Both the position numbers and the translations under genes were made by a program. A stretch of DNA of 59,086 nt, filler included, from Sphacelaria rigidula (Eukaryota): the NCBI GenBank assembly GCA_964200075.2. It is 10 parts of 10 records of this genome, joined end to end, with 100 filler letters (N's around TTAATTAATTAA, not from the genome) between each part and the next. Parts side by side here need not be neighbours in the genome. Positions count along the whole stretch, not along the records: positions 23,677 to 29,495 come from CAXNAA020024222.1; 9 more parts are not named here. One strand, given 5' to 3'. Positions 5,920 through 48,639 of this stretch are shown in pieces (position 1 is the stretch's first letter; every line of letters begins with the position of its first letter). The notes under the pieces were generated by a model that was given only the letters and a program-made list of their open reading frames with translations, was not told the origin of the DNA and made no database searches.

Positions 5920-5920
5920 C

Positions 5921-6014
5921 ATACATCACGAAGGAAAAACCCAACGAATCGGGAATCTAACCCCCATTCTCTCCACGCTAATGGCGACAGTCGGACCATT
6001 ACACCACCGGGGCT
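5921..6014 (-). mobile_element. tRNA-derived SINE family 1, 5' head (cut by contig end)
   Basis: Reverse complement of GCCCCGGTGGTGTAATGGTCCGACTGTCGCCATTAG...GGGTTAGATTCCCG. Confidence 0.8.
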
Positions 6015-6168
6015 CTGAAATATTCAGGAAGGCTGTATGAATGGAGTCTTTGGATTTATTTATTTTTTCGTGCACGGCCCTGTATATCTGGCGAAAGAAA
6101 ACAAAACTCGAAAGACCCCATTTATACAGCCTTCCTGAGTATCTCAGTGCACCCGGCTACAAAATCAG

Positions 6169-6306: not shown

Positions 6307-8417
6307 AAAATCAGACACCGCCTCCTAGGATCCTGGATATCTTTCGCAAAAAAACAAAAATCAAAATACCCCAATCATGCAGCCTTTCTGAATGTCACAG
6401 AGCGCCCGCGTGCGAATGTTTGGGTCTAAGGCCGCTCCTCATAACAGACAAAAGCGTAAATCTGGAAAAAGTGCCTTTTTGGAGCTTTGATGTCGTTTTA
6501 CGGCCAAAAAGAGAGCTAGTCAGAGTTTGGTACGTTGGAATGACTTGCTCCACTAGTTAACGTGGTTCCAGGACATCTCCTCGTTTTCTGGTGGCCGCAG
6601 TAGCAGCAGCAGCATTTATACGTCCAGCAGATGTGTATGGTTGGGAGTGGGGCTGAATCAGCCGGTGCCGATACTGCTGCTGCTACAGCTTCTCATCGTG
6701 CGGAAGGCGGTCCGCGTTTCGACCTGCGACAATGCCCACGCACCTTGCACGTGATGGCCACCCTACTGGGAATCGCTGGTCCGCACTACCCGCCGCTGGG
6801 TCCATGCGTGCTCACTCGGCGAAGTGCCGGGAGATATAGTTGTGCCCACCTCTCTTTCGGAGCTGTTCACGTCGTGTGTGTCTGCTCCCACGCGGGGCTA
6901 CTGCTCGTGATGGGAAAGCCAGCTAGCTGTGCGCCCCATGAAGAGCCGAACAACCCACGCTTGCAATCAAATGAAGATTCCTCTTCGCATTCGTGTACGC
7001 GAATGTTCATCCACTCTCACTGTTTAAGATCAATTCCCAAATGATTAACCCTTCTGGAACCCTCCGTCTCCGTCTCCGGGCCAGACGCCTCAATATTTCA
7101 TGCCCCGACAAGGAAGAAAGGATGGGAACAGAAAACACTGACGGCAACTATTTTTATGGCGGAAGGCCTCAGAAGAAGAACCCACCTTCATACGCCATGC
7201 GCGCACCAAGTATGTCACCCCGATGTGGTATGATCAGTGTTGTCCAATAAGGGGATGGATGGGGCAAGTGTAATCAATTTCGTGCACCCAGCCGAAATTA
7301 GCACTTGCGTGCCTGAACTCTACACAAACAAAATCGGCACCACCTCTCTATTTCTATATACTGAGTCCCGTGCTGCACTGCGGCACAATTATATGTGGGT
7401 CTGAAAAACACGCGTCGGGTGGCTAATAGTATTGCGTGAAAGCTGTAACAAACTCAACCATTTGTCGTTCAAAAAACAGCACCTCGAAATCCACACTTTT
7501 CCATCGCCAGTGCCAAGACGGCTATTTTTCTTTCGTGATAATGATTTCGGGGGCGATGAGAATCTGGCGCCAACTCACAACCAACTTGGAAACACAAGGA
7601 AGAACAAGCAAAAAAAAAACGCCTGAATCACCATCATTTTCACGTCGCATTGTCACTTTTCTCTCGTCTCGTTAGAACGGGCCTTTACAATGCTGTCGTG
7701 CAAAATAACGGCTTAACCCTCGCAGTGCTGCCCCGGAACACGGAGCAGCCCGTGGCGTCATGTTGTAGGTGGGCATGTTTGTTTGTTTTTTGCAAGGAAG
7801 GAGTAGACCTCACCCAACACCCACCCTGCGAAGTTGGCGGGTATGTGCTCACAAGAACCTACGACTCCGTTGCACCTTGAACGCCCCCCAACGATTTGTT
7901 GCTGTCCCATGCCATACACACCAAAATAGATCGGGTGCTGCAAAAGCAGCGTCAACACAGGTCCCGCCTCGCACAAACAATCCTGATCGAGGTAAGGAGT
8001 GGACGGGAGGGCAAGAGATCTTGCGATTTCAAACTCGCTTCTTTTCACTACTTTCTTGCCTTCCGCTCATTCTTGAGGGGTTGACCTTTTCATAACCCGT
8101 GGTCAACTGGCTGACCTAATAATCCTGCCGACTGTTCAGGGATGGCAGCAATAGCAAAGGCGAAGATGGCCGCTAGCTAGCCGTCCGTGCATGTGACAGA
8201 TTTCTTCTCCGTTATCGTTTTTTCACCGATCGGATTCCAGCCTCAAGTAGTCGATACAGTGGCGGGGGTTGGGGGTTCAACAGGCCGTGCCTGCCAGAGC
8301 TCAGCACCACACATCTCCTGATGTACGGAAGGGACTGTAGGCAGGATACATTCGCCGCTGTGACTCCATACGTTTGCTTGTGGGTCAACGTGTGTTCGCA
8401 GCGCGTAATTGGCTAGT

Positions 8418-8850
8418 GGGGATGGGGTGTACTCATAATTCTACATCCCGAAGCCATGATACCATTGATGTCGCATCCCTACACAGCCGGGAAGGAGCAT
8501 TGCGCCGGACCAGGCTGGCAGTCACCGAGCGCGAAGCGCTGGGGTGAGTTCGGCGAGTCGCGTGAAGGGTGAGCTGCATCCCACCATTAACACTGTTCGA
8601 CTCGACGCGTACTAATGATCTTGCATGTGGATATGACTGCTCCGTTCGAGTAAGTTGCTCCACTTTTCCGGTATCGCCACTTCCAGAGACGGCCACGGGT
8701 TACGCTGCTTCATGGGCGTCGGTCTCACAGTGTGAGCACTGCGTAGTACTATACCATCATACCCTTTTGCGGGGAGTTGAGGCTCTCCCACCCTGCACAA
8801 TATGATCCAACTCGACCACCATATTGGTTACCGCGAAAAAAAACGCAACT
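8418..8850 (-). mobile_element. C-tailed dispersed element (long form A), diverged
   Basis: Begins GGGGATGGGGTGTACTCAT on the plus strand and aligns in reverse with 25580-26000. Confidence 0.7.
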
Positions 8851-9069
8851 TGCCGTGAGGAATCCACACAGTGTCCCCACGGCACAACAACTGTTCCGAA
8901 ACGGACTCCTGACCATCCCGGCATTTGGGAAAATGCCCCGTATCGGTGGGGTGTAGATGGACGTCAATCGGTAGAGCTCGGAAATGGTTTGTCTAAACAT
9001 TAACCAGTTGAATGATTACGCGTAGGGCACTCATTAACCAGTTGAATGGTACATGATGGTTTTGTCATC

Positions 9070-9390
9070 GACCGGCGCAGCCGGGAGCAACCCCCCCCTC
9101 CCCCCCCCCCCGACAGAGGGGGGCATGGTGGAGGCGCCGTGCCGGAGGCACGTTTTTACGCGATTTGGCTTCACTACAGCTAAAAAATACGTCAAATTTG
9201 GGTCGATGTTCAAGGGCTGTATCTAGCATACGTAGCCGATAACGGCTTATAAAGCCGATAACGGCTTATAAAGCCGATAATGGTAAACAATGGCTTGAAA
9301 CCATTATCCATTTTTTTTCATACAACCGTTCCCATTATGACCATTATAATGATCATGGCCAGTTATTACTGGTACTGTTTCCGAGCACTA
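9070..9390. repeat. Dispersed repeat shared with 37770-38180 (opposite orientation), probable transposon end
   Basis: gcgccgtgccggaggcacgtttttacgcgatttggctt matches the reverse complement at ~38100-38145. Contains an internal tandem of agccgataacggcttataa. Confidence 0.6.
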
Positions 9391-10966
9391 TCAGTTGGAC
9401 ATGAGAGCGTCGTAGAATGCCCCGAAGATGTACAGTGCTCTTTGTTCCAGCCATATGACTAGCTCCGGAGCTCGTCACATCGGACTGCAAAAGCGGCGAG
9501 TGCCATGCTCATTGTCATCACCGGGAGTATTTGACTTTCTGCACATTCGACGAGAGGCTACATATAACAAGGCTGCGCCAGCATGCTCAGCAGAGTTGTC
9601 GTGAGCTCGTCGTCATACATACCACCACATTCAAAAAGAAAATCTCGTGCAGCATCCTTAGAGCCAGATCTTTGGAGGATCGGCAGTCCCGAGTGCTCCC
9701 ATCGTGCGCATCACGTGGTTTTGCTCCAATCGGCGCCGACGACAATTTGAGCTCTTCCAAAGCAAACATTGCCGAGGATATCGTATGCGTATCCGCCCCC
9801 CCCCCCCCCACAAAGATCGGGGACGGGAGCGGAAGAGGGTGGAGGGGGACAAGCACGGCGAAAGAAAGAAAAACAAGACGCNNNNNNNNNNGTTGGACTC
9901 CCACCGGCGCAATCGACCAATCGAAATCCTCCCAAGCAAACCTTCCCCAGTCTACTGTACTCGCATCCGCCCCCCCCCCCCCGGCATGCATCGGGCACGG
10001 GTTCGAGTTAGAGTGGAATGCGTCAACCGCGATGATAGGACGACGAACTCGCGCCAGCACGCTCCCCCCAGGCGACAGTACGGCTTTTGTACGTCTTCGC
10101 ACATGTATAGCCACGAGTACCGCTAGCTAAGCGCGATCACCGGTGATGGTCGCCAGCATGCGTAACGATCGAGGATGCTGTTTTCGCAGCCCATCTACAC
10201 CCCACACCGCTAAAGCTGTGACACGGCCTTTTGGCCTCAACCCCATCTCCTGTTCGTATGTACGCAGTATTCTTCCTCCAAAACGAAGGCATGTTCCCGG
10301 AAAATTCCGCGAGACATGACGAGGATTCCCTTCCCGCCATTTCCCCTCATATTCTTCTGGGGTAGAATGTCCGTTCCGGTGGTTTTTCAGGGGCGCAATT
10401 CCCTTCCCATCCCGTCCCCAAATATTGGCCAATTTTCCTTTTCCTCCGTTCCCTTTTATGAATGGGTTACGGGAAATGGAACCGTCTCTTCTCGCTGTTA
10501 TGGGGGAACCAAGACTAGAAAATATCCTCCATGTTTTCCCCCGCCCCTCCTTGAGTCCTCACGGGACATCTGATCATTATTTTCCCTGGTACTGAGCGGG
10601 ACGTTCCGTCGAAGGGACGAAAATTACGGTCGTGGGTCTTGCGGGGAAGACAAAAAAATATCCCTGCATACATGTTGTTTGGAGTTTTTTTTTTTTTGCC
10701 AGACGTGGGATACAGCATGTGTTTTCTTGAAGCAAGTCGCGGGCAGTTTCGGCGCTTACTATATCAGACTGCCACCCTTGCAACGGTAGCGGGTTACGTG
10801 GACCGGTGACGAGCATCTTGACGATCAAAGGTCCCAACATGAGAGGAGTTTTGGTGTGAGTGAGAGATACAAACAGGTTTTTCTGGGTCGATGGTGGTAG
10901 GCCGCTGGCGGAAGCCAGCCTAATACCGATGAGACCCAAGGCAGTTGGCCGCGACGAGCCAGGGAA

Positions 10967-11165
10967 GGGGGGCGGGGGTATACTCATGATCTTGCATGCC
11001 ATCGTCACATGACCGTTGAGCTCGTATCCTTACAAAGCCGGGACGGAGCACACCGGGTTTTCGCCGGACCAGGCTCGTACGAGGGGGTGGGGGGGGGGTG
11101 TACTCATTTGTTGCTCGCCTTAGTTGTTTGACCATTGACCACGCATCCCTCTCGAGACGGAGCGG
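10967..11165 (-). mobile_element. Two adjacent C-tailed elements (truncated A at 10967-11075; mini form B at 11090-11163) set in G-tracts
   Basis: GGGGGTATACTCATGATCTTGCATG... followed by GGGGGTGTACTCATTTGTTGC...GAGACGGAGC. Confidence 0.8.
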
Positions 11166-14600: not shown

Positions 14601-16959
14601 GAAATGACCTAATGTTGATGACTGCTGTTGTTTTCAGTACGGAGGCTTCGGGTGCCTTGGCCACAATCTGGTCCACGGAGATTGTCTGTTTTTGTTGTTG
14701 ATATGAGCGGTACATCCCTCGATTACAATTGCGGGGTGTTCCGTCGTGCTTTTCGACGATATTTCATTGGACACTGGACCGTGCTTCAGGTTACCGCGTG
14801 TATTACCGATATGTAGTATATCGCCCCTTGAATACCACCCCCGGTAGTGATCCTCGGATTTTGGTTCAATCACGCGGCTGTTTTCAGTATTGCATTGCTC
14901 CTCCCTTCAATGTCACTCCCGATTGATTTTATTTCTGGGAGAGGGGGGGGAGGGGGAGGGGGTCGATTTTGTCATCATGAGTTTTTCTTGGCACAACCGT
15001 ATGCAGATTTCACGCGTGGGGAGGGATGGATCATGATTATGAATGAGAACGGCGCCACAGTAGTGTATCGTCCAGATTCATTCGACACAAGCAAGCGAGC
15101 ATCCTGGTTGCTCTGTTTTTGTTTCTCATGGGAAACGACGCTGAAAAATAATAGGGCATCTGTTCGCCGCCTTGTGAAGAAATTGTAAAAATAGTCGAAA
15201 CTCCATTTCGCCGTATTCGATTCGTCGTAAACAAGTTACGGAAGAATTGCCAGGCTCCGCAGCATGGCGCGGCTTCGCTGCCAGGTGTATAGTAGCAGCC
15301 GACATCAAAAGCCGATAAGAGGTTGGTATACAAGGTATCCTAAGTTACAACGGAGCAATTCAAGGAATATCGATAGGTTGTTGAAGCGCTAATCCCATGC
15401 TGAATGATGAATTTATAATTCAGCATGCGGGACAATGTGATCGACTTTTTGGGAGTGCGGCATAACTCCGTGCGAATTCCGCTCGCGGTACATTTCCATG
15501 TCGGGAAAGAAGAAAAAAACGCTCGCCAGATTATTCCTTGACTTTGCAGCACTCGATGCAGGGGGTTTATATCATTCGCTCGAGGCAATATTTGATTTCC
15601 AATTGCATGCAGCGTCATTGCTTTTTGTAGTCCAAGCGCGAAACTCGTTTTTTTTCGTTGTCTATGAATGATGTCCATGCAGATTTTGGGTATACTGATC
15701 TTCTTGGTCGGAGGCGGGTTTTTGGCTTTGTGGTACATCAAACACTACGCTACGAAGCTCGTGACCAAGAAGCATCGAGAGGTACGGGAGCGCGTCGTTT
15801 GTGCCGGTAGTAATAGGGATGTTTGCTGCAAGAAAATGACGTCCTGTTTTGAAGTCGTAAGAATGCTAGCGCGATAACGGAGATGTGCTTTGTGTGGAAA
15901 TGGACAAGAGGATGTGTTGAATTTTAGAATCGTTCATTTTGCTGGGTGTGACCCTCGAATCCTGGACCCTGTATCGTAAAGTAAAACAAGACTTTTTTTT
16001 TCGCCTGCTTTCGTTTATGTCATTGTCTTTTTCTGGTTCGTCATCCTCCGCTTTTGTCCTGCTCTCCGGCTGTGTGTTACAGTTGTCTCGCTTCTCTCGT
16101 CAAGCAAAGTTGGTCATCCCTGAACGATTAATGTTAGAAGTTGCCACTTTATTATGACGAATGGCGGTCCTTCCGTAATAGTTACTTTTATCCAATGTCT
16201 TCTCTACTGTAGTCGTTTGACACAAACGCGTCCCAGTGTGACGATGATAGTGGGCCCGTGCACAATCGTACAACAGGGTGTCGCCTGTATCCGCTGGCGT
16301 GTTCGTTCTACGTGCACCCCTAAGACCACAAGTGATCGGTGACCAGTGACCGGTGACCAGTGATATGACACCCAACTGACGTCGATGTGACTGCCTGCCA
16401 GTACTTTAGTAATTGAGCAGTCGAGTTGAGGTCTCTTTAGCATACCGCCGTTTCATTTCAAACGTTTTTTTCGATCTACGCCCCGACAGGATGCGGGTTG
16501 GGTACGAGGACATTGGAGTGAAACGGATCGGAGTCATGATCCAATCGCAGTGTCGTGGGAGAGGCGTTGGTGACGTCGCGGTAGAGTTCTTGGGAGAAAA
16601 TGACGTGCTTCGATCCGCGCAGGTGTCGAAACGTTGTGCACTGAACAACTGAGCTATATATCTCTATATCTTTGTGTGAAAAAAATACCACCTTGCAGCA
16701 TGAGTGGCAAGCGTCCAATCACGAGACCTGCAACCCATGTTGTGTTGGGTCAAGTGGCATACCCTTGATTGATACCGAAGAACAAGGAAGACGCGACCAC
16801 TTGACACCAAACAACGTATAGACTGACAGCAGTTACCGATATATCCCTCCGTAGTAATATGTACACACTGTAGCATCGGCGTCTGGAGCTTTCTACCATG
16901 AAGCGCACAGGTCCAGGAGACCACTTCGTGGTGAGGAATCCCCCCCCCCCCCTCCCCTG

Positions 16960-17601
16960 CCCGAGGTTTGTAGGGGCGGACCCCCCTATGAGGTTGGCGT
17001 GGGTTGGCGATGATGCTGTAAAACATCCCACTCACCGCTTGAGCTAGGCAATCGGGTCACCGATTTGTTTTTGCGCGCTTGCGTTGTTTTTGTGGCAGCC
17101 ATGATGGTGGTCGAGCTAGATCGCATTGTGCGGGGTGAGAGAGCTCAACTCCGCGCGGGGGGGATGATCATACTACGTAGTTTTCAAAGCGTGAGAGACA
17201 CCCATGAGGCAGTGTGTGACCCGTGGCTGTCTCTGAAAGTGACGATACCAGAAAACGAAGCAACTCATCGGAAGCTGTCATTCAAATCCACGAAAATCAG
17301 TAGGCTCCCGGCCGAACAACCTGAGCAGAATGTAGCTCACCCTTCATGCGACTCACCGAACACATCACGGCGCTCCGCGCTTCGTGATTGATTGCAAACC
17401 TGGTCTGGCGAAAACAGCGTGCTCCGTCCCGGCTTTGTAGGAATGTGAGATCCATGATCATATGACTACAGCCCACACACACACCCTTATTGTGGGCACG
17501 TTTTGACTCCCCCTCCCCCTTGATATATAGGTCAATGGTCTGATGACCATGGCAAACCCTTATCGTGGGCACTTTTTGACCCCCCCCCCCCCCCCCCCCC
17601 C
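16960..17601 (+). mobile_element. C-tailed element (long form, variant 3' end GGGCACGTTTTGAC), followed by a second short copy
   Basis: Aligns with 25470-25970. The end motif acccttatYgtgggcacKttttgac plus a C-run occurs twice (17483-17520 and 17556-17601). Flanks ccccctcccc(c)t occur on both sides of the long copy. Confidence 0.75.
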
Positions 17602-17757: not shown

Positions 17758-20300
17758 GTCTCCGTCTTCTTCTCCGATCCGGTCAGTCCAAAGGCCCCAA
17801 ACACGTCCACCATGATGGTCATCATCCTCGCCAGTCCGTCGGGAGATCTCGAGACGACGCCGGCATCGTCGGCATACAGTATTCCCCACACCGCTCTTCG
17901 TACACGTTCCAGCGGTGTTTCCGCCCCCCTCCCCGTCTACTCATCGAGATCTACCATGTCCTTGGTGATCACATCGTCCTCGCTGAACCGCGGCGAAGAA
18001 GATGTTGCAGCAGGAGAGGCAGCACATATCCTTGTCGCAGTCCCTGTGTGACTTCAAACCACTTCGAGAACTCCCCGTCGTCCATGCGTACGCGAACTTG
18101 CATACCGTTGTGGAATTGGCAGATAACTGTCATCATCTCATCCGGAATACCAGCTCGGGCCAGTACCTGCCACAAAAGCTCTCGGTCGACCGAGTCATAT
18201 GCTTCCTGGAGGTCGACGAGGCACATGTACAGCAATATTCTCCGCCGCCGTCCCAGCTCCTGGAGCCGGGGCACTACGAACAGCATATCGACAGTGAATT
18301 GGTCAGGTCAGAAGCCATTCTGTTCCTCCGGTAATATCCCGTGCGTTTCGCAGTGGTCGCTGAGGCGGTTGGCCACTATCTTCAGGAGCAATTTCCCTGC
18401 GTGCAATACCAGAGAGATCTCCCTGTAGTTATTGCAGATGAACCGTTCCGAATCCTTGTGCAGCACCTTGATCGTTGCATCTTTCCACTCCCGCGGGACC
18501 TCCCCTCCGTTCCACACCTCGATGAGAATGGTATGGAGGCGTTCGAGGACGATGGGTTCGGCGCGGCCGTCGATCTTGAGTAGCTCCACAGGAAGGGAGT
18601 CGTGTCCTGGCGCATTCTAGTTGTGCATCCCCCGGACTGCTCGTCTGGTTTCCTCCAGTGTTGGTGCTGCCCCAAGCGGTACCGAGTCACCGGTGGTTGA
18701 CGCTACCGGTCGCTGCTTCTCCTCCTCGATGATGGCTGGGTTCAGCGTGGGCGATTTGGCGTTTGGCGGGGTGCGGAAGAAGCTCGCCCACCGTTCAAGG
18801 ATGGCAATTTTGTTCCTCAGTAGGACGCCGTTCTCGTCCTTTATTAACTGCTGCTTCCCGTATTGCCTTCCACCAAGACCCACCGATCTCTCGAGGTATT
18901 TTTCCAGGCCTCTCATGTCGCGATCCTTGTAGATCGCTTCTAGCCTTGCCACATACCTCTCCAGATGTACATGGATGTCGTCGCCTATTGCTGCACGTAC
19001 GCTCTTACACGCGGCTCTGAGTGCTTTCCACGATGCTGGGGTCCGGTGATTCTTCATCAGTCGGCGTGCCCCCTGTCGCTCGGCGAGCGCTGCCTCCACT
19101 GTTGCTCTCGTGCCGGGGCTTTCACACCATTCCGGCATACATGGTAATCGTGTCTCTTCCGGGAGTACTGTCTGCGCTGCTTCGAGGATAGCTTCGGTAA
19201 ACTCCTTCGCGGCCGCCGGTGCGGTGGTGATTGGTTGGTATTTTTGCTCGCCAAGTTCATGTAGGAACCTCTCGGTCACGTGTCACCTTGCCATTTCGAT
19301 CTGCAGCTGCTGTCGACTGAATTGACGCTGCTTCGATTTGGTTCGTACTGGGCGATTGTGAGCAACGCGGCCACTGAGGTCGACAGTGGCCACCACCATG
19401 TTGTGGTCCGAGTCCGCTTTAGCCAGGGTCCGCTTTAGCCAGGGTCCGCTTTAGCCAGGGGTGCGGGTTGGGGGTATACGACTACGTTGCGCACTCTACC
19501 TCGATGTGCCTACCGGGTGAGTATGTGGTCTATGCGCTTGAGGTCGCTCGTGCGATTCCCCGCAACACCGTTGTATGTGTGCGAGATTCCGCCTTTGCGC
19601 GTGCTGAAGAAGATGTTCGTGGTGGCTAGTTTGTTGTCAGTTGCGAAAGTCAGCAGATCTTGCTGTTATGGTTCAGCCCATCACATCCATAGGCGCCTAG
19701 GACCCCTTCGTCCTCTACACCCCCTCCTACTTTGTCCCCCGTCCGCGCGTTGGCATCCATCAAAACGTACACACATTCCTTCGACGGGATTCGCTGTACG
19801 AGATCATCAAGTCCGTCCCAGAAAGCTTGTTTCGTTTTGTTCTTGGCGACTTCAGTTGGTACATACGCAGCTACGAAATTGATCGCTCCTCTCTGTCCCG
19901 ATATTTCCAACCGCATTGCCATGGAGCGCTCGTCAACATACTCAGTAGTATAGGTAGCGTTATTGCAAATCGATTCTTTCACGGCTATCTCCACACCGTG
20001 TTGCCCACCTGACTCGCTCCCACTGCAGAAGACTCCGAACTCTGCTGCTGTACAGTCTATTGGCCCCGCCCCCCTTGTCTCCTGCAGTCCTATCACCGAA
20101 ATGTCAAGTCTCGCAGCCTCGTACAAGACGCTGTAGTCTCGCCCCCATCCGTTGGCCCCTTTCACAGCTATGGTTCTGACATTGTAAGTGGCTACCTTAT
20201 CAACTCGACTCCGCTGTCTCGCCCGGGCTACTCTTGCTGCTTTCCTAGCAAGCCTCCGCCTCGCCCGGCCCCTCCTCTTCTTTTTTCTGCTCTTGTTCAT
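17758..20300 (-). pseudogene. RTE ORF (endonuclease-RT polyprotein) broken by stops and frameshifts
   Basis: Split over ORFs 19650-20300, 18617-19279, 18308-18589, 17969-18286 and 17758-17891. In-frame TAG at 18617-18619. Tandem triplication of gtccgctttagccagg at ~19412-19459. Confidence 0.88.
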
Positions 20301-23697: not shown

Positions 23698-23734
<37 letters not shown>

Positions 23735-25434
23735 GGAAGGATCTTTTCGGCGTCGTGGGATCCCCGCTTGGCTTTATTCGCTTCTACGTCGAAGACAGCT
23801 ATATCTTGTTGTCTCAGACATTCATGGCGCTGATTTTCGGAATATTACAACCACTAAGAATTAGCAGAAATCACACATTACGGTCACGTACGTCACGTCT
23901 CTTCAGATCCGTGTGTCCCAGAAAGAAATGCGGGATGCACTGAGGCGCGTGAGAGACGCTTCGAGGCGGCAGGCGCGCTGGACTTGCGAGCTTGACTTTC
24001 ACAGAGCGCACGAACCCTAGTGCATACGGTGAACAATATTTGATATTTTTGCGACTAAGCTTCAAGAGCGATAAGTGTATATCTTTGCTGTATATAGTGC
24101 CTCAGGTGGACCACAGCACCAGTACCTGCAGTGCGGTACTGCAATATAATCGAACAGCATTCGGGTGACACCCCGCTTCAATATGAGATTCTATGTTTGA
24201 ATGCACTCAACCTATTATCCAAATATTATTTCAAGGGGAGAAGGGGAGAAAACAGAAGTGAGCTTTTTCTCTGGAGGAGCTACGTAGTTGTTGTACTATG
24301 AGCAGAAATTTGCAATGACAAGAATGTTTTGAATTGCGAAAAAAACGCATTGCCACGCAGAAAACCAGTACGAATACAACTTCTGAAACGCCTGATATCC
24401 TGATATTGCAGGGATGCCGATCACTTCATTCAAGATCGGGATCGCTCACTCGGAGTCGCCTTCAAACCTCACCTGCTTCGATAGTTTCTGGATTATGTAC
24501 TCTCGAAACACTGGCCGAACGAACAAGCTCAGGGGGGGGGCACGTTCAGCTGTCGTCGCCGACAGCAGTAGCAACGGAGCAGACTACAGGAGGAAACTTG
24601 TCCACTTCCGAAACAAGATAAACCAGATTTTCAAGGCTGGTGAAGTGATTACTGTCACGGTAAGCTCACCAATAAAGCCGCTGGTTCGAGTATATGTCAT
24701 CTATGTAGTCCGGGTAGTCGACAGTACGGATATCGCCAACGTACTGGCTTTTAAATGATTAGGTCTTCTTTGGACGGCTCTCGGGGGTCGGCGCGACGCA
24801 CGACCCAGGAGAGTCGTGGGACGACCGTGACTATTCTGAACGTGTTTTTCTTTCTCTCATGCAGTCACTTGAACGCGGGAACTTCCTGCATCGTAATGTT
24901 CCCCCCTAGCGCTCATCGTCCCGGCTAGCAGTCCCTGCGCGGCACATGCAAAGTGCAGATGATTGGGCCAAGCCTCCATCAAGGCTGTCAGTACGTTGAA
25001 ATGCATCCCAACGTCGACACCAGAGAAACTCGACCCCTTTTCCGGGCTAACATACCTTGCGAACACCTACCGGACAAGCCAGCGCATGACAGTGGTAAGG
25101 TGTCTGTCACACTCGATGGATTATGTTCAACACAAGACCACAGGGTGTCAGATTCGCCGTCTGCATCCATTGAATTGTTTGAGGTTTCATCGGTAGTCCG
25201 AGTCTCACTCCATCACGCCCATCTCTCTTGCTCACATTCCACGGCTAGAGTCACCATGACTACTGCCACTAGATCGTTGTTTGCTTCTTCCAAAAGTGGC
25301 AGCGTTGACATCGCAACTGTATGGTCGGGTGCGTTGACAACTTTGTTGATTCACTCCTCTGCACAGCATTTGCCCACCAGCCCCCCCCCACTCCCCAAGA
25401 GTGAGTACACCTTTCCCCCCTACTCCACAAAATA

Positions 25435-26008
25435 AGCTTGATCCGGCGAGAACCCGGCGTGCTCCGTCCCGGCTTTCTAGGGGCGGACCCCCGATGGGGT
25501 TGGCGTCGGTTGGCGATGGCGCTATTAAACACGCCACCCACTGCGTAAGCTAGTCAAGCAAGTTACCATTGTTTTTTGCGCGCTTGCGTTTTTGTGTTGC
25601 GGTAAGCATGATGGTGGTCGAGCTAGATCATGTTATGCGGCGTGGGAGAACCTAAACTCCGCACAATGACCATGATCGTACTACGTAGTGTTTATATCGT
25701 GAGACACCCATGAGGCAGTGTACAAGATGTGGCTGTCTCTGGAAGTGGCGATACTAGACAATAAAGCAACTCATCGGAGGCTGTCATCCAAGTGCAAAAT
25801 AATCTGTAGGCTTCGGGCCGAACAATCCTAGCAGAATGTAGCTCACCCTTCATGCGAGTCGCCGAACACACCACGACGCTTCGCGCTTGGTGATTGAGCG
25901 CAAGCCTGGTCCGGCGAACCGGCGTGCTCTGTCCCGGCATTGTAGGGATGCGAAGTCAATGGTCTGATGACTATGGCATTCACGATCATGAGTACCCCCC
26001 CCCCCCCC
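25435..26008 (+). mobile_element. C-tailed element, longest copy (form A, ~570 bp)
   Basis: Ends CATGAGTA plus a C14 run. Flanked by CCCCCCTACTCCACAAAATA (25415-25434) and CCCCCCTACTTCACAAGATA (26003-26022). Confidence 0.85.
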
Positions 26009-26370
26009 TACTTCACAAGATATCGTGTCGCTACCGTTTTTCTCGCTTGTGAACGTAGCGCATCTCGAAGAGCAGCATCATGTTTACGATAAGCGGAGAG
26101 TTCTTCAGCCACATACCCTTCAAGCTGCGATGACCTTTCGAAGGGATACCACCCAGAAGCTACGCCGTTTTCATACCACACTGCCGTCGCATCACGCCCT
26201 TTCCTTCGTGAGGTCATAGCGTTTTCAAGCGTTTTCTCGCGTGGGTCCCTTCCAAGCTATATTGCTTCGAACCAAAACGCTAGGAGAGCGATTTTTCGGT
26301 GTCAACGAAACGGTATACCAACAAAATATGTTCTTCCACTCCTGTCTGTGCCCACCCGGAATCTGCTCAG

Positions 26371-29261: not shown

Positions 29262-29399
29262 GGTGGTCGGTTGTAACCGCTCTGCTAAATGAAGGATATC
29301 TGACATTTTTGTACATTGTCGTGTTTGCAAAAAAAGGTAGCATTCACTTGATCGTGTGATATCAGTACTTGACAGTTGCCAGATACCCCTGGCACTATT

Positions 29400-29495
29400 G
29401 CCGCGCCCCGGTGGTGTAATGGTCCGACTGTCGCCATTAGGGTGGAGAGAACTAGGGTTCGATTCCCGATGCGTGGGGGTGTTCTGCGTAATGTA
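29400..29495 (+). mobile_element. tRNA-derived SINE family 1, 5' head (cut by contig end)
   Basis: A box TGGTGTAATGG and B box GGTTCGATTCC; same head as the copies at 43810 and 49257. Confidence 0.85.
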
Positions 29496-35186: not shown

Positions 35187-35323
35187 CTGACGAGCAAACC
35201 AGCGACAAACGGTCAAAAGGGGTTGCAACGACTACCGCAAAATCAGATTCAGGGTCCACGCCACGACGGCCAAAAACCTCCAGGTCCTGATTTCTGCGCG
35301 TGATGTGAATTGTACAGGGGGGG

Positions 35324-35391
35324 GCGTACTCATTTGTTGCTTGCCTTAGTCATTTGACCATTGACCACGCATCCCTTTCGAGACGGAGCAT
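35324..35391 (-). mobile_element. C-tailed mini element (form B)
   Basis: Perfect 15-bp TSD ATTGTACAGGGGGGG at 35309-35323 and 35394-35408. Confidence 0.85.
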
Positions 35392-37575
35392 GGATTGTAC
35401 AGGGGGGGCATGATNNNNNNNNNNNNNNNNNNNNNNNNNNNNNNNNNNNNNNNNNNNNTTAATTAATTAANNNNNNNNNNNNNNNNNNNNNNNNNNNNNN
35501 NNNNNNNNNNNNNNGTCGTGTCACCCCTGGCCTAGCATGTCCTTCGAGAGTGAAGCCAGTATCACCTCGTGATCAGACCACGACAATCGTCATCGACATA
35601 CGTGCTCACTTCATTCGTTCGGTGCAACTAACCACACCCGCTGACCTGCTGCAGAGATTTGGGGGGGAAGACGGCTTCGCTCTGTGTATCTGTGTAGCGT
35701 CATCCCCGCAGAACAGATATGCCCCTTGAATATCATTTTGAGATCAACCCCAAAAGTTCGAATCCTCTTGGAAGGTAGGCAGCGACTGGGGGGGATCAGG
35801 TCGGAGGAAATGGTAAATCGAGACCGGGAACAATTGAGGTAAACAAACAACAGTATAAAGCAGCCGGCACGAGGGAGGGTACCGTTTCTCACGATTCCTA
35901 GTCCCAAAATGGTTTGTGTTCACATGAACAAAGTCCGTTCTCATCTTCCAGGGTTTCCTGTTTACAGTACAACAGTATAGTACGGTACAATAAAATGCAG
36001 TGCGGCCGCCAGGATACTGTCCTGTATTCCGACTTAGAACAATTCCACGCAGTGCATCATTAATACATCAGGTACCAAAATGCAGAGTGGAAATAGTCGA
36101 GTCGGTACTGTACGCCCCCAACAAACTTTCACCGTGCTGCGTCCGCATCTGGGCGATGTCAATCTTCATTCTTCGTTGCAGGGAGGGGGTGGTACGCTCT
36201 CTCTCTGGCTGCACAGAACGCATTTTCTGTACACACCTCAAGTATCATCTACCTTCTCCCTGATATTTTCGATCCGTGTTTCATGCCGCGGCACCGTATA
36301 CACGGAATAAGGAAGAGGATTCCGATATCACCCCGAAGCGATAGCTCATCCCATTGTGGTCGAATTACTGGGTCGATATTTACGGGCACATGACGCACAA
36401 TTTTGATATTACAGCATAATGACGAACCTTTGTCAGATCCTTCCCGTGCACAACGAACGTGGTCGGGATCGCTTCCAAATCATGGCGAGAGCCTCCATAT
36501 ATGATGTGAAAGGCAGGTCCCCAACCGAGGAGGTCGGTTCACTTGAGTGGCCCTTCAAAAATCAACCAAACGCGGTCTTGATTCAGTCGCGCGCGCCCTT
36601 GTTTTCAAAGATAGCACGCTCGACTCAACGCTCATCAATGTGGGACGAAGATATAACGTTTATGCAGTAGCATACCCTCGTCAACCCAAAACCGATCAAT
36701 TTTTCGGATGTCTGGTTTGGCGAGTACTGTAGCATATCCACAAGTTGCAACGGGAGTTGAACCCCGAACTCTGATGAGAAGGCTTCATTAACTTTTACTC
36801 TACGGTGCCAGCTGCCCAACAGAAAAACAGTAGCCGGTTGGATTTGCATTCGCCCATCTCAATCCAAACGCTCCGTGCATGATCATTTTCCAAGAAAATG
36901 TCATTCGCTTCACTCATGCCAGCTACCATACCAACTTCAACCTGTATCTCTGACGTTAGGGCTATTCATCCAGGAGCAGCCTCTCTTGTACGTCACCCAA
37001 CATACATCGCAACGATCGAATCGGCAACCTGCACATACCGGAGATACGCATTCACGTTCGCTCCGATATCATCTTCTCTAACCCGCCGTTCATACCTAAT
37101 TGTATACTTTATTGGATCATGACGAAGAAGTACATAATTCAGCTGCAGGCGATCATATCATCACACATAAGCATCGAAATATTTTCGAAGAAAATGAAAA
37201 CGTACTCTCCGGCCGCCGTGTGTCGCCTCACTCATCCTCGAGGAAACAATACATCACCCCGTGTGCACAGTGTATTGCATTGCGCATCCTCGCACAGTCC
37301 AAGACTGTACTCCTCTCAACGTCAATCATCTTCCGTTTCCGATGTATGACCATGTCTGACGGATTACGTACTTTAACTATGAGCCCCCCCCCCCCATTTT
37401 AGCTCATCAGGAACAAATGGCGTGTTCCATGAAACTTCCATCTGTGGACCACCCCTCGCTCCTTGATATTTAGATATTCGACAGTGATATTCCACGTGTC
37501 CCGAAACAGTCCTACAGGTACGGTATGAACTGCAAGTAGCCCGGAACTCATCATCCAGAGGTGTTATTCAAAGAG

Positions 37576-37645
37576 GGGGCGTACTAATTTGTTGCTTGCC
37601 GTAGTTGTTTGACCATTGACCCGGCATCCCTTCCGAGACGGAACA
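37576..37645 (-). mobile_element. C-tailed mini element (form B), diverged
   Basis: GGGGGCGTACTAATTTGTTGCTTGCC...CGAGACGGAACA; degenerate flanks tattcaaagagg / tactcagacagg. Confidence 0.75.
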
Positions 37646-38521
37646 TACTACTCAGACAGGAGGTGAAACACTACGCACAGGTTCAAACACCATGTTGAAC
37701 TGGCTGGCGATGCTTGGAGGTTCAACTTCTAGCTCGTTGCCTCATGATGCTCACGCTAATCCATGGCGAAAACGGATGCAAAATAGCAAAAACCCAGTCA
37801 TTAGAACTCGGTAATTACACCAATTATAACTGGTCATTACCATTGTAATGGTAATAATTATAATGGTTATATGAAGATTTTGGATAATGGTATCAAACCA
37901 TTTTTTACTGTTACCGGCTACGTATGCTACATACAGCACACAGCTACAATAGTAGACAATACAAAACATGCGGTAGCGGTCATATTTTTTCGTAAATAAT
38001 TTAAATGTGCAACTTCTGGGAATATCAAAATACCAAGCCAAGTGCGTCATGGTCTTGCCCTTGGAATTTGGCTCAAAGTTTACGTATTTTTCAGCTCTAG
38101 TAAAGCCAAATCGCGTAAAAACGTGCCTCCGGCACGGCGCCTCCAGCGGGGCCCTCCGTGGCCGCCTACGGCGGAATCCCATCTGCCGGGAGCGTACTCA
38201 TCATCATGCATGCCATAGTCATAAGATGCTGGGGGGGGGCTCTTTGGCTTGCGGCTTCGCCGCTCCATCACCAAACCATCATGTACCATTTAACTGGTCA
38301 ATGGTTGCATTACGCGTGACCATATCACTTCTTGATGGCTAGATAAACCGTTTCCGAGCTCTGCTACTCATATATTGTCGGGATCCGAACCCTCGACGAA
38401 GAGAAGTATACTCCACCCAAACTGGCCGAATGATGTGTACGTTGATCATCACCGGGGCGTGGCGCGGCGGGGCAGCGGTGTATGTATGTTTACTCGCATG
38501 GTATAGTTGATGGATGTTGAG

Positions 38522-41433: not shown

Positions 41434-41600
41434 GATTGTTCGGCCCGAAGCCTCCTGATGATCTTGCATTTGGATGATAGCCTACAATGAGTTGCTTTAT
41501 TGTCTGGTAGCGTCACTTCCAGAGACGGGGGGGGTATACTCATTCGTTGCTTGCCTTAGTCGTTCGACCATTGATCAAGCATTCCTTTCGAGACGGAGCA
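41434..41600 (-). mobile_element. Form A internal fragment (41434-41527) abutting a mini form B (41527-41600)
   Basis: gattgttcggcccgaagcc...cacttccagagac followed by GGGGGGGGTATACTCATTCGTTGC...GAGACGGAGCA. Confidence 0.75.
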
Positions 41601-42306
41601 TATGGGGGATACATGTTTGCGTATTGCTTTCAACTTCAAGAGCCGGAACCCGCAACAGCTACATGCGTCTGTTGTTGGGTCTCTGACTATTCACACATGT
41701 GTCTTGCTCGAACTCGCCGACTGCCGACATGTGGAACACAAGTGGTGTGCCCCTGGCGATGGCGCCGTCTCATATCCGCGCTCCCCAGCACATGAGAACC
41801 AGAGTCTCGGGTAAGTCATACGCCAAAACATCCATCGCGCCCTGAAGCGTTCATATCGGCGGCTGTCGATTTCTAAAGGATTGGCAGATGTTCCCGTGTA
41901 ATAGAGCAACGAGGGTAGGCTTTGCGGAACAAGAAGACCTCGTAGAGTCAATTGATGTAGGCTGGGCCGACTGCTGTCGTTCTGGTCTTACAGTACTCGA
42001 CGCCTGTCGTTCTATCCGTACCCCAAAACCAAGGAGCGAACGTGTCATATATCCTGCGCGTCCATTCGCAGCAATACCCGCTGAGTATATCCGAATCAAA
42101 AGGCGCCTGAAAAAGTCCTTTACCAATGGTATCAAGGGGATCACAACCCACACGTAAAACCTCTCGGCGTTCATGTATGGGGGTCAATTATTCAGTACGG
42201 GGTCACGGTTCTCGGCCTCGGCTCTTCCTTGTACAGGAACCACCGGCGGTGGTCGCAGCTGCTACTGTAGACCCTGCTGCTGCTCTTGCGCATAATCCTG
42301 CTGCTT

Positions 42307-44652
42307 TTATTTTTTAGCCTTTCCAACGTTCTCCGTGTCTCGGGGCCCGATCATCTCACTCTCGTGTCCATCCATTCCCCCCCCCCGCTGCTGCTGCTGC
42401 TGTTGCTGCTGCTCTGGCGCCGGCCTTTCCCGTCCATCCTCCGCAATAGCCACGGGAACAGTTGGGTCGGCCTGATTTGCAAATACCTCTTGCATTTGGC
42501 TTTCCATTTGGTTGTCGACCGCTGAACCCGAGTACGAGAAATCCTCGTGCTGCTGCTGCTGCTGCTGCTGTCGAGGCAAGGACGCCGGGGGGGCGTAGAT
42601 ATGCCCTCCTTTCCGCCTAGAGAGGGTGGTCGTGGTTGAGGCGGTCACAGAAGGGGACGTCGGTGGAGGGGGGCATGGAGGCGAAGCGGAGTGCTGTTTC
42701 AATAATGCAGTAGATGGTCCTCAATATAGTATACCTACATGGACCATATACCCTGTGTACACTGCGGTTCTTGCTAAAGCACGTACAGTTTGATGTTTCC
42801 TAGATGTCCCTTCACACAGTACACCTGTGTCTTGTGCCGACGTTCCACAGCATGCTCCTTGGGGGGCGCACTAGCTTCATTTTCATTGGTCTTAAGTGTG
42901 GGGCAAGTATCCGAAGGAAGTGTGTTATAGCCTCTATGTAGAGTATTCTTTGTAGCCTCAGCCTAACCGCAGTCCATGCAGGGTCGCCTCTTCGTATCTG
43001 GATCCGTGCTTTTTTTGGACACTTGATTTTTCTCCACTTCAGCGTCTCCCATGAGAAGCTCTTTCACCTCAGGTTATTTCAGCTATTGACTGCACCGGTG
43101 ATGCTCTTACTCTTACAGGGGTACTCATGGTCTTACAGGGGTGGGGGGGGGGAGGAGGGGGCGTCCTCGTGGGGGGTACCGCTTGCTCCGTACACGCACT
43201 TGCTTAGGTTTTAGTGGCCGGAGACCTCAAGGGTACGCATTTACGATACGTCTCTTCTAGAAAAAATATTTTTCATGTCGCCGGCCAAAAAATACGAATG
43301 ACTAACACGCAAAAAGGGGTAACATTTGCGAGAAATTCCTGAATTCTACAAGGATAACTCAAACGCAGGGGCCAAGGGGCTCGCAACTCTTTTATTCTCG
43401 GGTTCGCTGAGCGTCCTGCCGCGAGGTCAAAAAGATAAGTTTCGCGGTGTCAGGCTGAAACGAAAACCGTACATGAATCCAAGGTTAATGGGTCGATTGG
43501 GAACCCACCCATCGCACCCATATCTGCGTTCGAGGCATCGTTGAATAAGAGTCCGTGTCTACGGGTCGTCTTGTGCTATGTCGTGGACTGCTTTTCCCCC
43601 CTTCAACTCGAGATGCAGGTGTTTCCCCTGGGTCTCCCTCGTCAATGTACCATCAGGATATGGTTCTTTCACTAATAATGGATTCACCCTAATTGCTACC
43701 AATGAGTGTGAAAAATAGCTATGGCAGTCATATATAAAATATTGATGATTATCATCAGTACATGAATTAAATTGCCACATTACTACTGAAAACATAGCGA
43801 CCACTCATCGCCGCGCCCCGGTGGTGTAATGGTCCGACTGTCGCCATTAGGGTGGAGAGAACGAGGGTTAGACTCCCAAAGCGTTGGGTTTTCTCTTCGT
43901 AGTGCGTAATTTCCATCGTGGAAAGCGTGAGAACGTGAGTAAACAAAGTGATCGATTGAGTTTGTTTGACGCGAGCTGACGCCGTGCGGGAGTGGTGATA
44001 GTCATGACCCAATCCGCGAGACCAATATGCAAGGCGTGTCCTTGGGGAGAGATGGGATGATCCCTTGAGACTAGTAGATCACGGACTCGTCCCGAGAAAG
44101 GGGAGGGGTTCAAAGTGCAAAAAATAAAATCATCCTGACCAGCTTACCTTGCGCTTCCAACCGCGCCCCGGTGGTCTATCTCGTACACCAGTAGCCGGCT
44201 ACAAAAGGTGTGGACGCGAATCCCAACATCAACTGTCCCTTTTCAGCGTAATCTAGTTTCTTGCCGTTGAAAGGGTGAGGGTGTCGATAGCAACGCAAAC
44301 GTGGCGGGAGTCGACGCCGTGAGAGAGAGCTTGTTCACTCGACAATACCAAGAAATCAGGCGTACAGCGGGGGGGGAAAGACGGTGTTGATCCCTTGAGG
44401 CTAGGGACTCATCCCGACAAACGGGAGGGATCAAGACATGACGTGGGAGGCGGGGAATAAATGGAGCTAGTTATCTTCGTTCATGCTCTTGCCCATCCCT
44501 CACCGGAGGAGATTGATCTCCGCCCTGATCGCGTCCAATTCGCGTGCTTGAAGCTTCACCAGAGCCACCAAGCGGTCCCTTTCCTCGGCCTCTCTTCGCA
44601 GTGAAGGTCCCTTCGATCCCAGGGCAGCGCTACCGCCGCTATTGTTCAACTC
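42307..44652 (-). CDS. CFAP44: Cilia- and flagella-associated protein 44, last two exons (5'-partial)
   Basis: Exon 44504-44652 (EERDRLVALVKLQARELDAIRAEINLL, phase 2) splices to exon 42307-42616 (RRKGGHIYAPP...). The joined LQA..I.A...EI.LLRRKG matches the conserved CFAP44/WDR52 C-terminus as recalled. Confidence 0.8.
43810..44130 (+). mobile_element. tRNA-derived SINE family 1, full length (~320 bp), in the CFAP44 intron
   Basis: Pol III A/B-box head, body shared with 49257-49630, and an A-rich tail. A diverged neighbour lies at ~44160-44435 and a 3' fragment at ~53780-53865. Confidence 0.85.
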
Positions 44653-44982
44653 CTGGAAAAAATGGATTGAAGGTGCACGCAGCAGACTGACTAGTTTTGT
44701 CACAACGACCAAAGAACGAGTGGAAGCACCTGCCGTCAACGTGGGATATATTGTACACAGATTCAAGAGTGGGTACCCATATGTCACGGGGTGTGGGAAC
44801 GGCCGCTGAAGAACACGAGAAAATGACCGTAACATGCGAACACGATGTGGGTCCAGGGGCTACGGGAGAGTTGATAGTCATGGTCCAATGCTCCAGTGCA
44901 GAGGCTGAACAGGCATCGAGGGAAATATGGATGGATCCCCTTGCACGATAACCTTGTCCCGAAAGCCAGACGGGGAAGGGGG

Positions 44983-45050
44983 GGCGTACTCATTTGTTGC
45001 TTGCCTTAGTCATTTGACCCTTGACTACGCATCCCTTTCGAGACGGAGCA
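44983..45050 (-). mobile_element. C-tailed mini element (form B)
   Basis: Flanks AGACGGGGAAGGGGG (44968-44982) and AGACCGGGAGGGGGG (45053-45067) match at 13/15. Confidence 0.82.
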
Positions 45051-45082
45051 TAAGACCGGGAGGGGGGAAGTAAGAAGCAGGC

Positions 45083-45810: not shown

Positions 45811-47454
45811 GTGTCACACAAAACGTTCCACACGCAGTCCAACTCTAGGAGTTTTGAGACGTACTCTCACCAGGATCTTCTGCGCGCAAGTGAAAAACTC
45901 TTTTAGTTGAATAAAGACATTTTGTTTTTTCATGGAGTTACGAAATTTTCTAGTTTTTTGCTGAAAGTTCCAATCGCTTTGACTCCCTGTTTTTTAGTTT
46001 TTTTCTTCGTATGCTGAGGACTGTTTCGCTTCTTGATGAAAATACCGTATCAAAATTTCGGCGCCTAACTCCTCAAATTTTAGCTGCGCGTCGCGTATAC
46101 CCCGAAAAACAAATATATAGGCTGGCTCAACTCGTAGTCTTGTAGAAACCTCGAGGACCCCATATCCCCCAAAATGGTGTGCGAAACCGGAAAACGCAAG
46201 TGACGTTAGAAAACCAAGTATAAAGTAGGTTGCGCACTAGACGCTGGTGACCAGGGGATCGGACTCGTCGTTGAGCGCACCTTTACACACATTCACGAAG
46301 TGGCCGGCTATGAGTGGCCGTGGTTCGTTTTTCACGCGTGGCATGTAAAAATCACGTGTTAATTTTTGGAAATATTTTACACAATATTCGGCCACAAAAC
46401 ACCACATACCAACCATACACCGGCTTCATTTTCACGAAAACAAGTGCAGGCTTTTCAAGGGTCAGCCGCTTTGGTGCACTTCTGTGTCATCTCCTTCTTG
46501 CTACCCTCTCCCGAAAATCCCTCGGAAAATCTCAGGACTTGACAGAAGTACAACACGACAGGGCATGGCTTTACAAAGACCCATTTTTGCCGTTACTGTG
46601 CGCTGAGATGTACGCACGCATTTTTTCATCTATGTATATATGTGTAAAAAACACCGCTTGGTTCTAGGGTAGCGTGGTTTGCACGCCTCGAAATACTCGG
46701 CTTTACGCACACAGCATCACGTTGAAATGGGGTCGTGCCTCGTGTATGGCAAGCACGCCTCACTAGGCAAGGTCGAGGGGGCCAGACAGTAGGCTGGATA
46801 ACCGAGCCGTAGGCAAAAACATCCTGCAGCGTGTTCAACGCTGCGCACCACCCTCGTATTCATGACTCCAAGGTATCAGAATGTCACGCGTAGGTAAATA
46901 ATATATCTTCTTGATTACTTGATCTTAACCTCTCCTTCGTATCTAATCTCTCACCTCAATCAGTCAGTGTCACCGTGATGTTAAACGTCCTTGCTTGGGG
47001 TGAGATGTATCAGTGACCTCCAAGGGTGGTCTTACCGGCTATCATCCCCCGCTATATACGAGTTCATACTCGTATCTGACCAACTCTGCACAGACTTGCA
47101 GTCTTGAAATAACCTGAAATACAGCATCTAGCTGGACCCGTCGGCGGGTCTGAGGCGGCCTGACAGCAGGCTAGTATGCTCCGACACTTTCTACGATAGC
47201 CCCCCCCCAAAACCAGCGAAAAGTGTCACGAAAAAAATGACCATACAGCGCCNNNNNNNNNNNNNNNNNNNNNNNNNNNNNNNNNNNNNNNNNNNNTTAA
47301 TTAATTAANNNNNNNNNNNNNNNNNNNNNNNNNNNNNNNNNNNNNNNNNNNNGGTTGCCTAGCTTAGGCAGTGAGTGGCGTGTTTCATAGCGTCATCGCC
47401 AAGCGACGCCAACCCCATCGGGGGTGGGGGCTTGTACAAGAGTCGTCAAATATT

Positions 47455-47591
47455 CACTCCCTGGACAATAGATCGCATTGCCAAAAATGTACTGCTTTGG
47501 GATATATTGTCTATTGCAGAAAACGTAGTAGCCCATACTGTGCGCAGTACACTTTTTGGCAGTGTAATTTATTGTCATCATCCAAGGTGTG
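47455..47591. mobile_element. MITE with 8-bp TSD, CACACCCTGGAC family
   Basis: Perfect TSD CAAATATT at 47447-47454 and 47592-47599. Confidence 0.85.

Positions 47592-48474: not shown

Positions 48475-48475
<1 letters not shown>

Positions 48476-48511
<36 letters not shown>
48476..48511. repeat. (AAC)n microsatellite
   Basis: About 12 aac units. Confidence 0.9.
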
Positions 48512-48639
48512 AACTAGAAATGACCTGCCTCTGCAACATAGCTACGGTGAAAAAGATGTTTGCGCAAAAATCATGGGTGATGCGGGAACATAAAAGGGAC
48601 AAATTCCCACAAGTGTCTCGTCAAGGAATCACCTTCACA

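Follow-up and report, generated by a model that had tools for sequence, protein, structure and literature searches.

During target-primed reverse transcription (TPRT) of L1 and Alu, the tail pairs with a T-rich nick, the target-site duplications (TSDs) begin with the tail's letter, and 5' truncation is massive. Stringent-type pairs of a long and a short interspersed nuclear element (LINE and SINE), such as RTE/Bov-B with its SINEs or the eel UnaL2/UnaSINE1, carry short tails that are not made of A. Here, we describe a family of C-tailed elements in the brown alga Sphacelaria rigidula, found in a stretch of 59,086 nucleotides from assembly GCA_964200075.2 (the window), which joins 10 unrelated pieces of ~5.8 kb with N spacers between them and holds 58166 non-spacer bases. 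A first-pass annotation of this DNA had reported a retroposon-like family with an oligo(C) tail and knew of no described C-tailed SINE/LINE pair. Such a pair is, in kind, already catalogued in Ectocarpus, in the available part of PMC12477816 (Genome Biol 2025). In its supplementary file 1, RTEX-1a is listed with a "single EN-RT ORF; (C)n 3'" (an open reading frame, ORF, for endonuclease and reverse transcriptase, RT) and a "C-rich" TSD, and RTEX-2 with "(C)n termini/TSD". Their non-autonomous partners are RTEX-N1a, of 607 bp, with "60 bp 3' end 83% RTEX-1/RTEX-2" and copies that "can be present in tandem", and RTEX-N2, a 188-bp relative. RTEX-N1_Ec32 (604-607 bp) is given as the most abundant family, with 2.48 Mb. 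Among the accessible Ectocarpus LINE entries of that study, RTE elements end in (CAA)n and CRE elements in (CA)n, and a (C)n 3' end with a C-rich TSD occurs only in RTE-X; the accessible main text contains no occurrence of 'C-rich' and no discussion of the C tail.

A match to an already classified element, an outcome that the first-pass annotation had set against its own reading, thus exists in kind with RTEX-1, RTEX-2 and RTEX-N1 as that source describes them. The annotation had also suggested a comparison with 'Sower', an unclassified repeat reported as the most abundant in Ectocarpus (~2.5 Mb; PMC3145265, accessible part). The suggestion was apt, Sower and RTEX-N1_Ec32 both being top-abundance repeats. 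From the matching size and rank, Sower is probably RTEX-N1_Ec32, an equation that we infer, since the word 'Sower' is absent from the available text of PMC12477816 and from its four readable supplements. Literature searches on poly-C or C-rich tails gave no retrotransposon paper by title among those listed (40 of 398), those on RTE-X and tails only PMC12477816 as relevant, and those on brown-algal non-LTR (long terminal repeat) elements and their tails nothing on C tails. Because a (C)n 3' end, a C-rich TSD and a partner are already recorded for Ectocarpus, our gain is incremental; what we add is the anatomy of the 3' end, a quantified preference for C-runs, paralogous empty sites, and the extreme abundance of the ~67-nt stub.

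The best explanation of the Sphacelaria family is very probably an autonomous, single-ORF, C-tailed LINE accompanied by a non-coding passenger of ~570-600 nt, both inserting, as we propose, by TPRT and preferentially at C/G runs. To take the census, the segment 25415-26022 was compared with the window by blastn, and the window with itself by self-blast. All copies listed by the first-pass annotation were recovered (16/16, every position), spread over 8 of the 10 pieces. They comprise seven long-form copies or fragments, six short copies of ~74 nt, and three smaller stubs, and occupy 2665 of the 58166 non-spacer bases (4.6%). The fixed end described earlier, ATGAGTACR followed by a C-run, with variable truncation at the 5' side, was borne out by the blastn alignments and by a motif count: the exact motif is found 7 times in the window, where 0.72 would be expected, a count that none of 100 shuffles attains.

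The five TSDs quoted in the first-pass annotation are all present as described. The long copy is flanked by 20 bp with two mismatches (25415-25434, + strand, and 26003-26022), beginning with C6. The short copy at 35317-35391 has 15 perfect bp within an 18-bp duplication with one mismatch (35391-35408 and 35306-35323) that starts with C7, and the short copy at 51508-51588 has a perfect 14 bp (51496-51509 and 51587-51600). The remaining two are the 13/15 match at 44978-45052 and the 7 bp, beginning with CCC, of the stub at 49538-49585. Both ends fall within the window for 13 copies: the TSD contains non-C letters in 5 of them, matches are confined to C-rich sequence in 3, and the other 5 lack a convincing duplication.

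Pre-existing C-runs, among them the tails of older copies, are strongly preferred as insertion sites. Five or more consecutive Cs lie within 25 nt upstream of 10 of the 15 5' junctions, as against 2.6% of 20,000 random positions; the 15 junctions are not independent, because several copies sit in each other's tails. Three copies begin directly at another element's C tail (41526, 38230 and 11075). We also compared contigs of four public sequencing runs (X1, X3, X4 and X5, from two studies) with positions 47353-53169, using the best-supported matches. Head-to-tail joints, leading from 51588 to 51515, 51517 or 51527, are carried by several contigs per run. Two stubs can be set beside paralogous empty sites: the one at 49541-49585 interrupts a host repeat that is uninterrupted in three paralogous copies, and the one at 38188-38230 lies within a C-run that is an unbroken C8TC12 in the paralogue at 9091-9111. 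C/G runs of at least 7 number 46 in the window, ~9-fold the shuffle mean of 4.9; only ~10 of them are tied to this family, and several of the others terminate other repeats.

These same data raise the question of whether the C-run is ever part of the element's RNA. If the endonuclease cut pre-existing C/G homopolymers, the run after each copy could be duplicated target, an account that would fit the 10 junctions adjoining C-runs, the general abundance of such runs, and the many TSDs that begin with a C-run also found upstream (25415, 35402-35408, 16940-16952). We nevertheless consider it improbable. At 51496-51600 the target holds only CC, whereas the filled site has C8, as had been noted for this copy (at 51514) in support of a C-run owned by the element. 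In other copies, the consensus behind 51588 is 15-28 Cs in 4/4 runs (637, 657, 391 and 71 contigs). In two public contigs that carry the LINE, L001 and L003, tails of C8 and C13 adjoin unrelated flanks that do not resemble a C-run origin, and the published Ectocarpus consensus sequences are given with '(C)n 3'' in the accessible part of PMC12477816. The C tail, which ranges from 7 to more than 20 Cs, therefore belongs to the element. That the runs are sequencing or assembly artefacts, such as poly-G read ends, has a negligible probability: the element-linked runs are internal, between element and TSD, and recur in four runs from two studies as well as in the two independently assembled public contigs. 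What speaks for artefacts is the presence of a 35-nt G-run at, or close to, the start of two of the pieces (1-35 and 23699-23733); either genuine long tails or poly-G artefacts of the reads could account for these.

A 28-nt stretch of the short form led to the autonomous partner, on one metagenome contig (L001) and one genome-bin contig (L002/L003). L001 carries a 673-codon open frame (P0001) with an RVT_1 domain (E 2.8e-33) and a CCHC knuckle; it continues without a break across the short form as far as a TGA within the motif ...ATGAGTAC..., 5 nt ahead of C8. In L003, an uninterrupted frame of 1382 codons (P0097) stops 5 nt before the C13 tail. Its Exo_endo_phos domain (residues 193-415, E 8.1e-11; also Exo_endo_phos_2) marks an apurinic/apyrimidinic endonuclease (APE), and RVT_1 (residues 763-1012, E 6.7e-32) lies C-terminal to it. 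The best sequence matches in the PDB are R2 and L1 ORF2p. Full-length relatives in the protein database (1328-1360 residues, 90% and 76% identity) have the same domains. The LINE ORF, of ~1360-1380 codons, thus encodes an APE endonuclease, a reverse transcriptase, and a C-terminal CCHC knuckle. With an RT domain, an APE N-terminal to it, a fixed 3' end, and neither LTRs nor terminal inverted repeats (TIRs), the element belongs with the APE-type LINEs. Among named proteins the nearest is a chimeric gene model of Ectocarpus, which carries the C-terminal two thirds of the LINE protein at 71% identity and has the same C-terminal peptide; distant relatives (~40% identity) likewise end in a ...GCVVNG...AMA...-like peptide. 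The protein Atlas returned only generic EN-RT clusters without taxa for this ORF, and a search of viral contigs with one DNA pattern and one protein found no relative. An RT-encoding partner with the same 3' end, for which the first-pass annotation had proposed a search, is therefore at hand in the ORFs of L001 and L003 that end at the short form.

The union of APE and RT in one ORF is known from these related loci, and the window holds only the ORF's two ends. A coding fragment at 53098-53169 (+) matches the zinc-knuckle region, residues ~560-583 of P0001 (tblastn), and is a 5'-truncated LINE copy that runs off its piece. The 5' leader and first ~32 codons are found (tblastn) at 53270-53384 (-), 81% identical to L003, starting ~20 nt after a C14 run (53405-53418). 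None of 20 ORFs of 145-278 codons in the window matched a Pfam family. L003 (5259 nt) and L004, with one eukaryotic LINE that is intact and another that is partial, are filed under an 'uncultured bacterium' bin; given the eukaryotic LINEs on its contigs, this bin holds algal DNA.

Since the LINE frames of L001 and L003 read through it, the short form (~67 nt plus the C-run) is the coding 3' end of the autonomous LINE, made up of its last 21 codons, stop codon, and 5-nt 3' untranslated region (UTR). The C-termini of the LINE proteins matched all six short copies in the window by tblastn, at 68-100% identity, and the copies are 86-99% identical to one another. Five lie on the minus strand: 11089-11163 (C10 tail), which starts 2 nt after the position common to four copies; 35317-35391 (C8), which agrees in 74/74 nt with the intact L003 LINE at its 3' end; 37575-37646, an older copy (88-89% identity) with no clear TSD; 41527-41601 (C8); and 44978-45052 (C7), whose 15-bp TSD has 2 mismatches. 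The sixth, at 51508-51588 (+, C8), is 81 nt long, 98.8% identical to the LINE 3' end, and extends 7 nt further into LINE sequence. The stubs comprise ~40 nt at 38188-38230 (-), inside the C-run of a host repeat, ~45 nt at 49538-49585 (-), within another host repeat, and a smaller one at 17531-17554, found by self-blast and blastn. Contigs from the public runs extend past the truncation point at 49580 into more 5' sequence of the family, confirming the truncation. The term 'non-autonomous retroposon' used in the first-pass annotation consequently holds for the ~570-nt long form and fails for the short form, the coding end of an autonomous APE+RT LINE. On mechanism, that annotation proved largely right.

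The short form is very frequent. Its density in the window is 6 copies in 58 kb. Contig depth sums to 8.8e6 at 51553 and, in run X1, to 3.0e6 for the short-copy bin, compared with ~25-30 for neighbouring single-copy contigs of that run; these sums are not copy numbers. They nevertheless place the short form with the most highly repeated sequences of this dataset. Four of the six short copies share one starting position and have an A there in place of the LINE's G. This hints that they derive from a separate short RNA, or else that the RT stops preferentially at this point and adds one untemplated base. On the first of these readings, the ~67-nt form would be a micro-retroposon made from a short RNA with a fixed start and mobilised in trans by the LINE. 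We regard this as possible but rather doubtful. Besides the common start, it would account for the short form keeping exactly the region shared with the passenger, and for the short-form bin having the top summed depth in 4/4 runs, ~4x that of the next bin, which is LINE-coding DNA. However, the copy at 51508-51588 reaches 7 nt further, and contigs continue upstream of 51508 into LINE sequence, 207-219 of them in runs X1 and X3 and 51 in X5 (among the matches listed, run X4 has none there). The copy at 11089-11163 starts 2 nt later, six copies are too few, and a favoured RT stop with one untemplated nucleotide would look alike.

The passenger is represented by the long form, whose 560-nt body at 25435-25994 (+) is alone among the copies in extending to the known 5' end of the family; its C14 tail (25995-26008, +) overlaps the right TSD with its last Cs. 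The other copies are incomplete. Two are 5'-truncated, at 1519-1816 (+, query positions 282-591, 78% identity) and at 8414-8848 (-, query positions 170-596, 73% identity; both by blastn), and a third, at 10966-11075 (-), is cut to its last ~110 nt and follows closely on the C tail of a short copy (11089-11163). The copy at 16953-17468 (+, query positions 60-559) has C13 directly before it (16940-16952), and its 3' end is rearranged, up to 17601, by small insertions that end in other C-runs. The fragment at 41434-41526 (-), cut off by the end of its piece, has its 5'-truncation point right against the C8 tail of a neighbouring short copy (41527-41601). The fragment at 47355-47425 (-, query positions 73-143, blastn) is 5'-truncated, since contigs of other copies extend past 47425 into the family's 5' region.

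The longest own-strand open frame in the long form is 46 codons, and the LINE proteins gave no tblastn match to its body. Only the last ~60-75 nt are common to the long form and the LINE, with ~80% identity over 61 nt. Lacking an ORF and sharing only this end, the long form behaves as a non-autonomous passenger. Translated, its tail resembles the C-terminal peptide of the LINE relatives (...GCVVNG...AMA...-like), which points to an origin of the tail in a related LINE subfamily. A direct repeat of ~45 nt within the long form (25434-25482 and 25902-25947) is a partial duplicate of this LINE-derived tail. No head derived from tRNA, 5S or 7SL RNA, or from a SINE was found by Rfam at E<=10 over 25380-26040, and ARAGORN found 0 tRNA-like genes in the window. 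A classical SINE, with an RNA polymerase III (Pol III) head, was accordingly rejected. The authors of PMC12477816, in the accessible part of that study, could not place the head of RTEX-N1 either.

Short, abundant elements flanked by duplications might also be DNA transposons, such as miniature inverted-repeat transposable elements (MITEs), or Penelope-like elements with a ribozyme. We consider such an identity extremely improbable. The combination of a constant TSD length and true TIRs, which the first-pass annotation had named as evidence for a DNA transposon, is not seen: TSDs vary from 7 to 20 bp, truncation is one-sided, and no TIR was found in the 40 terminal nt of either end (best match, 5 nt). 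The ORF combines APE and RT and gave no GIY-YIG match, so a Penelope-like element was rejected along with DNA transposons and MITEs. The long form's tail holds a CTGATGA (25970s), a possible hammerhead-core motif; it is not conserved among copies. In Rfam searches, neither the window (E<=1) nor the segments 25380-26040 and 51480-51620 (E<=10) yielded a hammerhead ribozyme. The matches obtained were irrelevant (a bacterial small RNA, 22 bits; a flavivirus element, 16 bits; and a microRNA (miRNA)-like match on an unrelated palindrome), and a ribozyme, tRNA or known-SINE identity was thus rejected on the Rfam and ARAGORN results.

Taking the C-tailed LINE and its passenger as the preferred explanation, we propose the following mechanism. 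The endonuclease would nick the bottom strand at, or adjoining, a run of Gs, which reads as a C-run along the strand of the element. The 3' oligo(dG) released in this way would then pair with the C tail of the RNA and prime cDNA synthesis, and a staggered second cut 7-20 bp away would create the variable TSD, which tends to start with Cs because a C-run lies at the nick site. Early termination of cDNA synthesis would give rise to the 5' truncations, and the last ~60-75 nt, common to the LINE, the ~67-nt stubs and the passenger, is the presumed end that the RT recognises. Because each insertion adds a C-run, old tails would become targets, yielding nested and head-to-tail copies. We tentatively extend this to the idea, plausible though short of probable, that the C tail is a self-propagating homing signal, which primes on G-runs and with each insertion plants a preferred target. 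If so, it would account for the nested and head-to-tail copies and the ~9-fold excess of C/G homopolymers, and it would explain how the ~67-nt stub, possibly with a short RNA of its own, rose to be the genome's most repeated unit. The papers available to us do not analyse this idea, and in them the C tail appears only in a supplementary table.

Several observations weigh against the LINE-passenger explanation or its details. Five of the 13 complete copies have no convincing TSD, and 5 of the 15 5' junctions have no C-run nearby. These copies are mostly more diverged, although invoking divergence as the cause is an excuse and not a test. The boundaries of the copies behind the C-run statistic were set by us, and several copies lie in one another's tails. 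No orthologous empty site was recovered among the contigs of the four runs on 47353-53169, and no contig among the matches listed bridges the short copy at 51508-51588: they end at 51535-51537 and resume at 51564 or 51626. The initial A shared by four short copies is not explained by simple independent truncation. That transcripts carry the C tail, and that this tail pairs with the target, we deduce from DNA only. RNAalifold gave 3 pairs and no compensatory change in the shared 3' end, with no conserved structure, and single-sequence folds of the shared tail are no better than shuffles (z-scores -0.8 to +0.5). Finally, the RTE-X clade is a putative assignment that follows the description of the RTEX families, and the likeness to them is indirect, consisting of 71% identity to an Ectocarpus protein that is unnamed and shares the C-terminus.

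The window contains further repeats with C-runs. A 17-nt end, ...ACGATAG, with a TAG stop abutting the run, precedes C9 at 47184-47208 (+) and C14 at 53405-53434 (-); the two sites, alike only in these last 17 nt and the run, may represent the 3' end of a further LINE or passenger with a C tail. Units ending in ...TTTTGA plus C-runs (C22, C17) lie at 17483-17520 and 17555-17601 (+), both within the 3' part of the copy at 16953-17468, and at 57766-57795 (-), and may be a further C-tailed family. Neither end has a matching C-terminus among 95 LINE relatives. Two related units of ~174 nt stand head to tail and end in ...ATCCG plus C13 or C14 (9796-9809, 9970-9982). A repeat of at least 400 nt with a long internal C-run, at 8973-9373 (+) and 37819-38362 (-), provided the empty and filled site of the stub at 38188-38230. 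On the + strand, all homopolymers are enriched, with 31 runs of A, 29 of T, 31 of G and 15 of C of at least 7.

Other repeats stand apart from the C-tailed family. Remains of a different LINE at 18029-20024 (-) are 28-33% identical in RT and ~26-33% in APE to the C-tailed LINE proteins; their 3' end lies off the piece. Another high-copy repeat family is found at 49256-49540, 43802-44102, 29393-29495, 5920-6022 and 53779-53853. In contigs upstream of 49336, its consensus carries GGTTCGATTCC, a Pol III B-box-like motif, and the family may therefore be a tRNA-derived SINE. A near-perfect palindrome of ~90 nt at 58906-58996, which gave the miRNA-precursor-like Rfam match (~41 bits against gathering thresholds of 67-110), is probably a hairpin or inverted repeat.

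Once recognised, debris of RTE-X-type LINEs explains much unclassified repeat content and many C/G homopolymers. Three features of the present LINE are unusual: an ORF that runs to within 5 nt of the C tail, a coding end that doubles as the presumed recognition module borrowed by the passenger, and homing to C/G runs. A C-tailed LINE is also a natural test of primer-tail pairing in TPRT with a letter other than A.

How does the Sphacelaria pair compare with known systems? As in L1 and Alu, TSDs start with the tail's letter, 5' truncation is massive, and the tail would pair with its target, proposed here to be G-rich. By contrast, the tail appears to be encoded or propagated as (C)n rather than added by polyadenylation, and recognition probably needs the specific 3' ~60 nt. 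With stringent-type LINE/SINE pairs, it shares a partner that borrows the LINE 3' end, a short simple-repeat tail, 5' truncation, and variable TSDs; it differs in its C homopolymer tail, its coding 3' end with a 3' UTR of 5 nt, and its preference for C/G runs. The LINE most resembles RTEX-1 and RTEX-2_Ec32, which, as far as their accessible description goes, combine a single EN-RT ORF with a '(C)n 3'' end and a C-rich TSD and number thousands of copies in their brown-algal host. Their consensus sequences measure 5.5-5.9 kb and are likened here by description, not by nucleotide alignment, and protein identity is 71-76% to Ectocarpus-like forms as against 88-90% to P0002/P0097. The long form, in turn, resembles RTEX-N1_Ec32 as accessibly described, with bodies compared by description only: 560 nt plus tail here and 604-607 bp there, a lack of coding capacity, an unplaced 5' part, a last ~60 nt ~80% like the LINE end (83% in Ectocarpus), a C-rich TSD, tandem or nested copies, and a place among the most abundant repeats. 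It differs from RTEX-N1_Ec32 in having a second, partial LINE-derived tail in its 5' part. With a length of ~600 bp, no coding function, a shared 3' end of ~60 bp and a C-rich TSD, it has the properties of an RTEX-N1-like partner.

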